Of a DNA stretch of 54,288 bases, positions 17,999 through 40,412 are shown one piece after another. The DNA is from Minisyncoccota bacterium (GTDB lineage: Bacteria > Patescibacteriota > Minisyncoccia > Phycocordibacterales > Zambryskibacteraceae). Each line of letters starts with the position of its first letter. Within the stretch, counting starts at the first letter, position 1. The notes below the pieces were generated by a model that saw nothing but the letters and a program-made list of their open reading frames with translations, did no database searches and had not been told where the DNA came from. The DNA lies in assembly GCA_025450175.1 (NCBI GenBank), contig JANWHY010000008.1, forward strand, positions 1 to 54,288, written 5' to 3'. The position numbers and the translations under genes were made by a program.

Positions 17999-19162
17999 CT
18001 AACTGATAGCTTCTTTCAAATCTGCGATTTTTACTCTTTTTTGCTCACCAGTATCACGGTCACGGAGAGTAACCGTGTCATCTTCTAATGTGTCGAAGTC
18101 TACGGTGATACAGAATGGTGTACCAATCTCATCTTGGCGGCGGTAGCGCTTACCAATGTTGCCATTGTCATCGAACTCGAGATTTGGGATGTGAGATTTA
18201 ATACTGGAGAATACTTCACGAGCCTTGGAGACTAGTTCTGGCTTGTTTTTAAGAAGTGGGAAGACAGCAGCACGAATGGGAGCTATGTTTTTAGGAAGTT
18301 TAAGATATACACGCTCCTCTCCTCCCAACTTATCTTCTGTATAAGAAGAAGTAAGAACCGCGAGAATAGTGCGATCAACTCCGAGCGATGGCTCGATTAC
18401 ATGAGGAACCATTCGCTCTTGAGCCTCTTCGTCCAAGTAATCTAGACGATGATTCTTAAGATCGAAGTCTGTCCGATATGCTAAGCCCCAAAGTTCCCCT
18501 CGACCAAATGGATAATCAAATTGAAAATCGATAGTCCTCTTTGAGTAGTGGGCTCGCTCTTCGTCGGGAACATCGAACTCGTGTGCTCGAATACCCAACT
18601 CCTCTGCGAAGCTGTTCATAATCTTCCTCCATATATCAAAATACTTTTCCCAGTCGGCCTCTTTAATAAAGTATTCTACTTCCATTTGCTCAAACTCTCT
18701 TTGCCTGAAGATAAAATCTCGAGGGGAAATCTCGTTTCTAAAAGCTTTGCCGATTTGCGCAACCCCGAATGGAAGTTTTGGATGATGAGAGTCAATAACA
18801 TTCTTAAAATCTACAAAAATTCCTTGGGCGGTCTCTGCGCGCAAGTGACTTGTTGTCGCATCCTCACCTGTACCCACTTGGGTTTTAAAAATTTCATTCC
18901 CAAAGTTTGCGACATGACCCGAAGCTTCCAAAACTTTTGGATTACTAATAATAGAGGTGTCGGTAGCAAACATATCTTCTCGGTCGAAAATAAATCTTTG
19001 CTTCCATAAATACTTTATATTTTCTTTTAAGATTACCCCGTAATGCCCATAGTTCCAGAAGCCAGCAAAGCCTCCATAAATTTCTGAATTAGGATAAACA
19101 AACCCCCGCCTCTTACAGAGAGATACGATCTTTTCCATTGAATCTAGGGTTTTGCCAGACAT
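17999..19162 (-). CDS. glyQS: Glycyl-tRNA synthetase (alpha2 type), unusually short
   Basis: The N-terminus RRGFVYPNSEIYGG..GFWNYGHYG, motif 2 FRNEISPRDFIFRQREFEQMEVEYF, motif 3 GVDR and a C-terminal anticodon-binding domain are all present. At 387 aa it lacks the usual insertion between motifs 1 and 2. Confidence 0.88.
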   Translation of the reverse strand: MSGKTLDSMEKIVSLCKRRGFVYPNSEIYGGFAGFWNYGHYGVILKENIKYLWKQRFIFDREDMFATDTSIISNPKVLEASGHVANFGNEIFKTQVGTGEDATTSHLRAETAQGIFVDFKNVIDSHHPKLPFGVAQIGKAFRNEISPRDFIFRQREFEQMEVEYFIKEADWEKYFDIWRKIMNSFAEELGIRAHEFDVPDEERAHYSKRTIDFQFDYPFGRGELWGLAYRTDFDLKNHRLDYLDEEAQERMVPHVIEPSLGVDRTILAVLTSSYTEDKLGGEERVYLKLPKNIAPIRAAVFPLLKNKPELVSKAREVFSSIKSHIPNLEFDDNGNIGKRYRRQDEIGTPFCITVDFDTLEDDTVTLRDRDTGEQKRVKIADLKEAIS

Positions 19163-38368: not shown

Positions 38369-38587
38369 CTAATTATTTATGGCCTTATTCCAGTTGTGCT
38401 CTAGTAGCTCTTTAGCATGGTTAGCCTGATTGATAACTTCGAACTGTCCGGATTCGGTCCTTTGTATAGGAGAGGTGCGAGAGGAGATGCTGAACTTTGG
38501 CATTATCTTCAAAGCCAAGTAAGCCATTATAAATGTGGCGATCAAGAGAGCGAGTAATCCAATAAAACCTTTTTGAGTATTTTGCAT
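38369..38587 (-). CDS. Small membrane protein with a pilin-like N-terminus
   Basis: 72 aa. MQNTQKGFIGLLALLIATFIMAYLAL resembles a class III (prepilin) signal but lacks Glu+5. Its ATG is 1 nt downstream of the tRNA-His 3' end. Confidence 0.5.
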   Translation of the reverse strand: MQNTQKGFIGLLALLIATFIMAYLALKIMPKFSISSRTSPIQRTESGQFEVINQANHAKELLEHNWNKAINN

Positions 38588-38588
38588 G

Positions 38589-38660
38589 GGTGCCTACCCG
38601 GTGCTGCCCCGGGACTTAGAGATCCACAATCTCTTGTGCTGCTGCTACACCATAGGCACC
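38589..38660 (-). tRNA. tRNA-His (GUG) with non-canonical D and T loops
   Basis: Minus strand: g-gtgccta-tg-gtgt-agcagca-gcac-a-agaga-ttGTGga-tctct-aagt-cccgg-ggcagca-ccggg-taggcac-c. All four stems pair, with one G.U. A G-1:C73 pair is present and no CCA is encoded. Confidence 0.7.
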
Positions 38661-38694: not shown

Positions 38695-39222
38695 ATGGGA
38701 AAAACTTTAAAACCAGAATTTTTTGAGAGGAAGACATTGGTAGTAGCTAGGGGTCTCTTGGGGAAGGTCTTAGTGCGGAAAAATGGGAAGAAAATTATTC
38801 GCCAAGTTATTACCGAGACCGAGGCTTATGTTGGCCCGCACGATCTAGCTTGCCACTCATCGCGCGGGAGGACAGCTCGATGCGAGCCAATGTTCGACGA
38901 AGCTGGCACCATTTACGTCTACTTCACCTATGGCATGCACTGGATGCTCAATATCGTGACAGAGGAGAAAGACTTCCCCGCGGCAGTCCTTATACGAGGA
39001 ACAGATCAAGTTTCTGGCCCCGCTCGTCTAACGAAAGCTCTCAATATTGATAAGAAGTTAAATGGTCAGAAACTTGGTAAAAAGTCTGGCCTCTGGATCG
39101 AGCAAGCTAGTGAAGCTATTGAAGCTAGGAAGCTACGTATCATCCGTACTCCCCGTATTGGCGTCGCCTACGCCAAAGAGGGTTGGGCCAACAAACCTTA
39201 CCGATTTATATTAAAGCCCTAA
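38695..39222 (+). CDS. mpg: DNA-3-methyladenine glycosylase (Mpg/AAG family)
   Basis: VARGLLGKVL, ITETEAYVGPHDLACHS, GTIYVYFTYGMHWMLNIV and AVLIRG motifs. Confidence 0.9.
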   Translation: MGKTLKPEFFERKTLVVARGLLGKVLVRKNGKKIIRQVITETEAYVGPHDLACHSSRGRTARCEPMFDEAGTIYVYFTYGMHWMLNIVTEEKDFPAAVLIRGTDQVSGPARLTKALNIDKKLNGQKLGKKSGLWIEQASEAIEARKLRIIRTPRIGVAYAKEGWANKPYRFILKP

Positions 39223-40326: not shown

Positions 40327-40412
40327 TGGTGCGCGGGAGAGGACTTGAACCTCCACGCCCTAAGGGCACTACCACCTCAAGGTAGCTTGTCTACCAATTT
40401 CAACACCCGCGC
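40327..40412 (-). tRNA. tRNA-Leu (GAG), CCA encoded
   Basis: gcgcggg...gctacc-ttGAGgt-ggtag with a long variable arm and the T arm ggagg-ttcaagt-cctct, ending in acca. Confidence 0.92.

Follow-up and report, generated by a model that had tools for sequence, protein, structure and literature searches.

A tRNA-His of much of the Paceibacterota with A18 and G55 in place of G18 and Psi55 at the elbow

Introduction

It is commonly taught that every cytoplasmic tRNA has G18, T54 and Psi55. [quoted passage not shown] A further contact, between 16 and 59, is known as C16:C59 in the tRNA-Sec of E. coli and as U16:U59 in eukaryotic tRNA-Sec (PMC7609411). T-loops are also found outside tRNA, in J11/12-J12/11 of RNase P, in the L1 stalk of 23S and at the apex of T-box Stem I, where they are conserved in the forms UG..A and AG..A; an outside base, inserted between nucleotides 4 and 5, stabilises these five-nucleotide T-loops (Lehmann et al., 2013, PMC3664808). 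Reviews of the tRNA elbow, of T-loop modifications and of non-canonical tRNAs treat G18, T54 and U55/Psi55 as universal, and a G at position 55 goes unmentioned in them (PMC4810234, PMC7609411, PMC7912444).

Here, a tRNA-His gene is described that lies in a stretch of DNA of 54,288 nt, the whole of which is referred to as the window. The host is presumably an ultra-small, groundwater-type bacterium of the CPR/Paceibacterota, and the closest homologues of the neighbouring genes were named Parcubacteria and Zambryskibacteria. This tRNA-His combines an ordinary role with an undescribed elbow design, which is fixed in the tRNA-His of much of the Paceibacterota. In the full-text literature, for which the coverage is incomplete, no description of an A18-G55 tRNA elbow was found, either in CPR bacteria or in general.

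The tRNA-His gene and its detection

The tRNA-His(GUG) gene occupies 38589-38660 on the minus strand, 72 nt that run from G-1 at 38660 to the discriminator C73 at 38589, as delimited by the sequence, the Rfam match and the cloverleaf parse. On this strand the letters are G-1, GTGCCTA, TG, GTGT-AGCAGCA-GCAC, A and AGAGA-TTGTGGA-TCTCT in the 5' part, followed by AAGT, CCCGG-GGCAGCA-CCGGG, TAGGCAC and C73 in the 3' part. The 8-bp acceptor stem has its 5' strand (G-1 and G1-A7) at 38653-38660 on the minus strand, paired with 38589-38596, where the sequence, the parse and the relatives place the 3' strand (U66-C72) together with C73. The D arm (38636-38650, minus strand) consists of the stem GUGU/GCAC and the loop AGCAGCA (38640-38646), which has 7 nt and, instead of the doublet, one G only at the place of G19; alignment with the AGCGGTA of canonical sisters puts A18 at 38643 and G19 at 38642. 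The anticodon arm (38618-38634, minus strand) reads AGAGA / UUGUGGA / UCUCU, with the anticodon GUG at 38625-38627, and the 4-nt variable region AAGU follows at 38614-38617 on the same strand. Finally, the T arm (38597-38613, minus strand) has the stem CCCGG/CCGGG and the T loop GGCAGCA (38602-38608), numbered G54 G55 C56 A57 G58 C59 A60, so that G55 is position 38607. According to our own cloverleaf scanners, all 22 of the 22 stem pairs are standard, including U13.G22. From the canonical elbow signature, G18 G19 with T54 Psi55 C56...A58, only G19, C56 and A57 are retained. The original prediction had named the cloverleaf, the G-1:C73 pair, the GUG anticodon and the loops AGCAGCA and GGCAGCA, and had called the elbow loops non-canonical; the letters and the parse bear out each of these points.

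Scored with Rfam RF00005 in a local region of 500 nt, the gene reaches 42.4 bits (gathering score 29, E = 1e-7) in a full-length match over positions 1-71, which, together with the set read by HisRS (G-1:C73 and GUG), supports the tRNA-His identity that had been proposed. The remaining tRNAs of the window score 53-68 bits with RF00005, and the single-sequence fold of tRNA-His is stabler than that of shuffled sequences (z = -2.6). When RF00005 is run on the whole window, tRNA-His is dropped at the speed-filter stage in the gathering and E-value modes alike, and ARAGORN makes no call of it with default or -ps80 settings; own cloverleaf scanners were therefore written. In this genome, Infernal scans with filters report too few tRNAs. 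The tRNA-Leu(gag) at 40327-40412, a genuine tRNA, is also dropped by the whole-window Rfam search in both modes.

Decayed stems, loss of identity elements and truncation, by which a pseudogene would be recognised, are absent from the window tRNA-His, which is predicted to be aminoacylated and used in translation. Within the window, ARAGORN and our own scanner found no second tRNA-His, and hisS is absent, the class II synthetase candidate at 17999-19162 being GlyRS. Around the gene, neither promoters nor terminators scored above chance on the minus strand. Public runs contain the conserved tRNA but not the locus itself, and no copy derived from RNA turned up in three metatranscriptome runs and one run of unknown type.

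The gene does not encode CCA; C73 is followed by a C and then by the ATG of the next ORF (38369-38587, minus strand), which encodes 72 aa with a hydrophobic N-terminus (QKGFIGLLALLIA) and has no Pfam match. The junction ..CACC C ATG is seen at 38585-38589 of the window and also at L001:12776-12780, a related locus where the ORF encodes a DM13-domain protein, and a leaderless mRNA might result here when the 3' end of the tRNA is processed. Such an arrangement, with the ATG one base past C73 in front of two unrelated ORFs, is what would be expected if the element were a tRNA-shaped processing signal instead of a decoder, from which RNase P and 3' processing release the leaderless mRNA of the next ORF. 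However, most relatives have no ORF start there, and the full HisRS identity set is conserved along with the anticodon loop, both needless for a pure signal. This explanation is considered extremely improbable, and the roles of signal and decoder are in any case not mutually exclusive.

Conservation in relatives

A first set of loci was collected by way of the gene next door, which encodes a methylpurine-DNA glycosylase (38695-39222), and its homologues. In L001, where the glycosylase has 80% protein identity, the T loop GGCAGCA is identical to that of the window, the D loop is AGCAGTA, the anticodon stem is fully compensated and a C5 to U change retains a G.U pair. L032, a Zambryskibacteria genome, has both window loops exactly, and a near-identical gene with 2 differences and other flanks is present in a further public run. 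The anticodon stems of the window, L001 and L032 differ by compensation, being AGAGA/TCTCT, ACAGC/GCTGT and AGAGC/GCTCT, respectively. Sequencing error, which the original prediction had raised for the two loops, is ruled out, since both (AGCAGYA and GGCAGCA) occur in the independent assemblies L001 and L032, and the further public run likewise shows the loops to be genuine. In L003 and L007, canonical tRNA-His genes stand in the same neighbourhood, e.g., AGCGGTA with TTCAACT, so that the window loops are the derived state; AGCGGTA takes the D-loop place in the canonical sisters L003, L070, L077, L081 and others. The derived changes in the window would accordingly be read as G18 to A in the D loop and as U54 to G, U55 to G, A58 to G and U60 to A in the T loop.

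A wider species scan, with one genome per species, demanded the D stem of the lineage and the His anticodon loop together with a T loop without T at 54 and 55. It returned 54 stretches, 46 of them complete tRNA-His with an NGC... T loop. The 46 species-representative genomes with the odd allele are CPR-labelled in 44 cases and Verrucomicrobia-labelled in 2, and the hosts comprise Nomura-, Taylor-, Zambryski-, Kaiser- and Campbellbacteria, other Paceibacterota/Patescibacteria bins and the two Verrucomicrobia-labelled bins. As both collection scans, this one and that of metagenomes described below, demanded the lineage D stem, the spread among tRNA-His is underestimated.

The window, the 46 genomes and metagenome contigs were combined in an alignment (A1) of 44 distinct G55-C56 tRNA-His, in which 99.3% of 968 pair cells are standard. 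Changes on both sides are seen in 16 of the 22 pairs, with double changes among relatives at all five pairs of the anticodon stem, and 0 of 500 shuffles match any of the five measures used; in slid registers the paired share falls to 34-43%. G-1:C73 is present in 43 of 44 sequences, and the UUGUGGA anticodon loop in 44 of 44, a loop that both scan patterns demanded. The cloverleaf is thus under purifying selection, and its retention with compensatory changes argues that the locus is neither an error nor a relic.

The genomic position points in the same direction. The odd gene adjoins tRNA-Leu(gag) in L032, L030, L049 and L120, a canonical gene stands at the same place in L003, and rplS adjoins the tRNA-Leu(gag)/tRNA-His pair in L032 and L003; in the window, tRNA-His lies 1.7 kb from tRNA-Leu(gag). 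The odd allele occupies the ancestral tRNA-His slot, and intact odd and canonical tRNA-His genes occur together in none of the 8-20 kb loci, which speaks for a replacement of the resident gene and against the gain of an extra copy. The window gene is most likely the only tRNA-His of its genome. The alternative, a spare or decaying copy that persists as a relic or accessory gene beside a canonical tRNA-His elsewhere, draws on the observation that an HNH cassette, discussed below, turns over tRNA-His in this group and leaves dead 5' halves behind. These genuine dead stubs, however, are truncated exactly after the anticodon loop, whereas the window gene keeps its stem pairs and identity elements, shares its allele with other species in which compensatory changes have accumulated, and sits in the ancestral slot with no second copy at hand, in the window or in the 8-20 kb loci. 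A relic is therefore very unlikely.

The oddity had been predicted to be limited to tRNA-His, and this limit holds in the window and in neighbouring Paceibacterota loci. The D loop contains GG and the T loop TTCRA in all seven remaining tRNAs of the window (Leu x2, Val, Arg x2, Ser and Lys), and TTC loops are carried by the other class I tRNAs that were parsed from the window and from Paceibacterota loci (Val 13, Arg-UCU 9 and Arg-GCG 3, among others). The sole exception is L040, a Verrucomicrobia-labelled contig with several odd-elbow tRNAs. On this contig, which has a Brevifollis label, L040:4818-7941 contains at least 5 tRNA-like genes whose T loops are of the NGC type and whose D loops have no GG; their anticodons are GGC, GAA, UCC and CAU, plus a GUG tRNA without G-1:C73, and the cluster looks like a tRNA array of odd-elbow tRNAs. 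Another array, of at least 10 tRNAs, is located at L184:995-3052 on a 132-kb IMG/VR viral contig. Its GUG tRNA has the D loop ATCAGCTA, the T loop GGCAGCA and C-1/A73, and so is without the bacterial HisRS identity pair. A phage origin of the allele of the present lineage was considered and rejected, its 5' half having 0 matches in IMG/VR.

Coupled exchange at positions 18 and 55

In A1, G19, G55, C56 and G53-C61 are invariant, A18 is found in 43 of 44 sequences and position 57 is a purine in 44 of 44; positions 14 and 21 are A in every row and were fixed by the metagenome pattern only. The majority class (A54/U58) combines the T loop AGCRUAA with the D loop AAUAGNA in 30 distinct sequences. 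The G54/G58 class, to which the window belongs, has GGCAG(C/A/G)N with A(G/A)(C/U)AGYA in 10 sequences, and a single sequence represents a CGCGAUA class. In the 3 sequences of the UGCAAAU class, with the D loop AA(U/C)AGCA, U54 and A58 are canonical, and 18 and 55 alone are altered.

A metagenome sample that is unbiased for positions 18 and 55, as only the D stem, the anticodon loop, A14 and A21 were demanded, gave 98 distinct tRNA-His among the 120 matches listed. Among these, G18/U55 occurs in 86, A18/G55 in 8, A18/U55 in 1 and C18/U55 in 1, and G18/G55 in 0 (Fisher p = 3e-10 for the coupling, ignoring shared ancestry). The changes G18 to A and U55 to G are strictly coupled. The sole A18/U55 among the matches listed, at L089:1599-1671, has the D loop AATAGCCA and the T loop TTCGAAT; such a gene might be a transitional form, a chimera of halves or the product of misassembly. 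A near-isogenic pair is formed by L071 (AATGGTA, TTCAAAT) and L091/L177 (AATAGCA or AACAGCA, TGCAAAT), which share an unusual T stem and a clade support of 98%, and whose T loops differ by U55 to G alone.

A tRNA tree was built from the 58 alignment columns that remain when the loops are left out. It requires 12 changes of the odd or canonical label, at least 6 of which well-supported branches make unavoidable. Short and weak though this tree is, it suggests that a single origin of the swap is unlikely; the swap looks to have arisen repeatedly or to have moved between lineages.

Two further kinds of tRNA-His were encountered. In L064, L117, L123, L127, L143, L153 and L156, U54 is lost and G18 G19 U55 are retained, the T loops being ATCGATA, ATCGTAC, ATCGTTT, GTCGAAT and GTCGGAA, which represents a second and independent kind of departure from T-Psi-C. 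L069, L079, L084, L095, L096, L125, L136, L141, L163 and L176 are of the alphaproteobacterial type, without G-1 and with A73 (U-1 GCCUGGG ... A73 CCA), and have canonical elbows.

Swapped contact or loop-loop helix

The conservation of A18, G19, G55, C56 and R57, together with the strict coupling of 18 and 55, argues for a normal interdigitated elbow in which the 18-55 contact has been swapped. The locus is thus probably a working tRNA-His that keeps the L-shape and G19-C56 and has exchanged the interior contacts of the elbow. All features that are read from outside are retained, namely G-1:C73 and GUG for HisRS, the anticodon loop, the lengths of the stems, G53-C61, and the outer face of G19-C56 with a purine at 57, and the acceptor and T stems would stack over 13 bp with G-1:C73 counted. 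In the interior, A18-G55 would stand in place of G18-Psi55 and G54 with G58 in place of the U54-A58 reverse-Hoogsteen pair, geometries that are proposed from the sequence alone, and C16 would face C59 or pair with G58. The T loop should still adopt the T-loop motif, with A18 intercalating at the usual place of G18 and the L-shape maintained. For m5U54 and Psi55, and likewise for m1A58, the tRNA has no residue to be modified.

The loop variants of the family can be set beside the T-loops known outside tRNA, in which an outside base intercalates. On the sequence side, G55 is invariant, A18 is nearly so, and the two are strictly coupled. The UGCAA and AGCA(U)A loops fit the forms known outside tRNA, and GGCAG would need a G-G closing pair. 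Position 16 varies in step with the T loop. It forms a standard pair with 59 in 37 of the 44 sequences of A1, a pairing that is seen in 29 of 30 members of the A54/U58 class and in 5 of 10 members of the G54/G58 class.

The original prediction had offered another architecture, a helix between the GCAGC of the D loop and the GCAGC of the T loop, which the relatives do not support as a conserved arrangement. Over the five proposed pairs in the 44 sequences, 46.8% of cells are paired as against 46.2% in shuffles, and the alignment, the check on covariation between the loops, gave no excess covariation. Among the single pairs, 15-59 is standard in 5 of 44, 16-58 in 12 of 44 and 18-57 in 0 of 44, and the 19-56 pair of the proposed helix is the ordinary invariant G-C. 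The 20-55 pair is C-G or U.G in 42 of 44, but the pyrimidine at 20 is ancestral and unaltered in the canonical sisters, so that this pairing is uninformative.

A narrower form of the idea applies to the GGCAGCA subclass only, where an antiparallel mini-helix between G15-C20 of the D loop and G55-C59 of the T loop, made of C16-G58, A.A, G19-C56 and C20-G55 with or without G15-C59, would replace the interdigitated elbow. Within the G54/G58 class, positions 16 and 58 make a C-G or U.G combination in every one of the 10 sequences, and so do 20 and 55. Moreover, GGCAGCA with a ..CAGC.. D loop is met again in unrelated settings, in a tRNA-Gly of the L040 array and in the tRNA-His of L054, both from Verrucomicrobia-labelled contigs, and in the His-like tRNA of the L184 phage array. 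The combination has thus come up more than once and is not an accident of one lineage. Against such a helix stand the family-wide pairing at the level of shuffles, with 15-59 seldom formed, and the A54/U58 class, in which 16-58 is pairable in 0 of 30 sequences and yet the same core of A18, G19, G55 and C56 is found. A Y20-G55 pair gives no reason for the strict change of G18 to A, those G54/G58 sequences that have U16 also have A59 (3 of 3), which fits 16-59 equally well, and a continuous helix clashes with the intercalated stack of the elbow (PMC4810234). Even for the subclass, the mini-helix is judged to be quite unlikely, and the same holds for a single additional C16-G58 pair in the elbow of this subclass. 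An extension of the T stem by G55-C59, with a CAG triloop, was also rejected, as position 59 varies (C, A, G, U) and G55 is fixed.

An HNH cassette at tRNA-His genes

In five loci, a 5' half of tRNA-His ends exactly after the anticodon loop TTGTGGA and is followed by an ORF of 160-183 aa for a zinc-finger HNH endonuclease, often as a tandem duplicate (L031:22-676, L068:1597-2246, L075:1199-1818, L087:365-960 and L169:3019-4190). In the four loci where the contig extends far enough, an intact tRNA-His with another D arm comes next. The junction of the cassette is often palindromic with the anticodon loop (TTGTGGA-N6-7-TCCACAA), and the ORF has a weak match to Pfam HNH_3 (E = 0.0024) with a plain HH...N...H motif. 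L031 had been a candidate for an odd gene beside a canonical one and was rejected, since it consists of a dead 5' half, an HNH gene and an intact canonical gene.

Of 48 odd genes, 10 have an HNH gene immediately upstream, as have 6 of 85 canonical ones (p = 0.026, ignoring kinship). As four of the latter six entered the sample by way of their stubs, the true contrast is probably larger. This association, together with the repeated label changes on the tRNA tree, raises the question of whether tRNA-His genes are the homing site of the cassette and the odd elbow is a cleavage-resistant or cassette-carried tRNA-His allele that has spread horizontally; at the molecular level, U55 to G would compensate for a G18 to A change that was selected at the DNA level, and the changes at 54 and 58 would have come later. 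It would also account for tRNA-His alone being affected. However, the window has neither an HNH gene, by tblastn with five HNH proteins, nor a stub pattern, so that its tRNA-His carries neither of the marks of a cassette-borne gene, the upstream HNH gene and the 5'-half stub, and most odd alleles, the large Nomurabacteria-type clade included, have no adjoining HNH gene. The destroyed stub of L169 has an A18 D loop, which indicates that A18 is not protective against every variant, and the stubs all end after position 38, which places the insertion site in the anticodon arm and not in the elbow loops. The horizontal, cassette-driven spread is thus rather unlikely, and an immunity of odd alleles to the HNH cassette is putative and similarly doubtful. 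If it were true, a selfish DNA element would have driven the swap of a "universal" tertiary contact in an essential tRNA, and the patchy distribution of odd alleles would be accounted for. The HNH link provides a testable hypothesis for why the swap affects tRNA-His, of all tRNAs.

Implications

An elongator tRNA with an odd elbow, which dozens of bacterial species have fixed and which is probably essential, represents a natural double-mutant cycle. It suggests that the elbow features which are truly required are G19-C56, R57 and G53-C61, and that the remaining ones are exchangeable. Odd-elbow tRNA-His is predicted to be independent of TruB and TrmA, and its design may aid that of orthogonal or modification-free tRNAs. 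As ARAGORN and filtered Infernal miss the window subtype, CPR genomes may be wrongly called tRNA-His-less.

Comparison with known systems

In comparison with canonical bacterial tRNA-His (RF00005; E. coli hisR type), the window tRNA-His has the same cloverleaf, the same 8-bp acceptor stem with G-1:C73, the UUGUGGA anticodon loop and the 4-nt variable region, as well as G53-C61, G19-C56 and a purine at 57. The differences are concentrated in the loops, with A18 for G18, G54 G55 for T54 Psi55 and G58 for A58; the D loop of the window gene has 7 nt, and m5U54, Psi55 and m1A58 are impossible. The T-loops outside tRNA share with the window a G at the second position, but they serve as docking platforms in large RNAs and not as the T loop of a tRNA, and a G..G closing pair, as in the GGCAG of the window, is absent from the conserved forms named for them (PMC3664808). 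In the eukaryotic initiator tRNA, A54-A58 is likewise a purine-purine combination in place of U54-A58 in a cytoplasmic tRNA that keeps its elbow; G18, G19 and U55 are kept there, however, and it is an initiator, not a bacterial elongator (PMC7912444).

[quoted passage not shown] Finally, the alphaproteobacterial tRNA-His without G-1 is another lineage-specific break with a "universal" feature (Wang et al., 2007, cited in PMC5370408). The identity element (G-1/C73) is changed there and the elbow is canonical; in the window tRNA-His the situation is the reverse.
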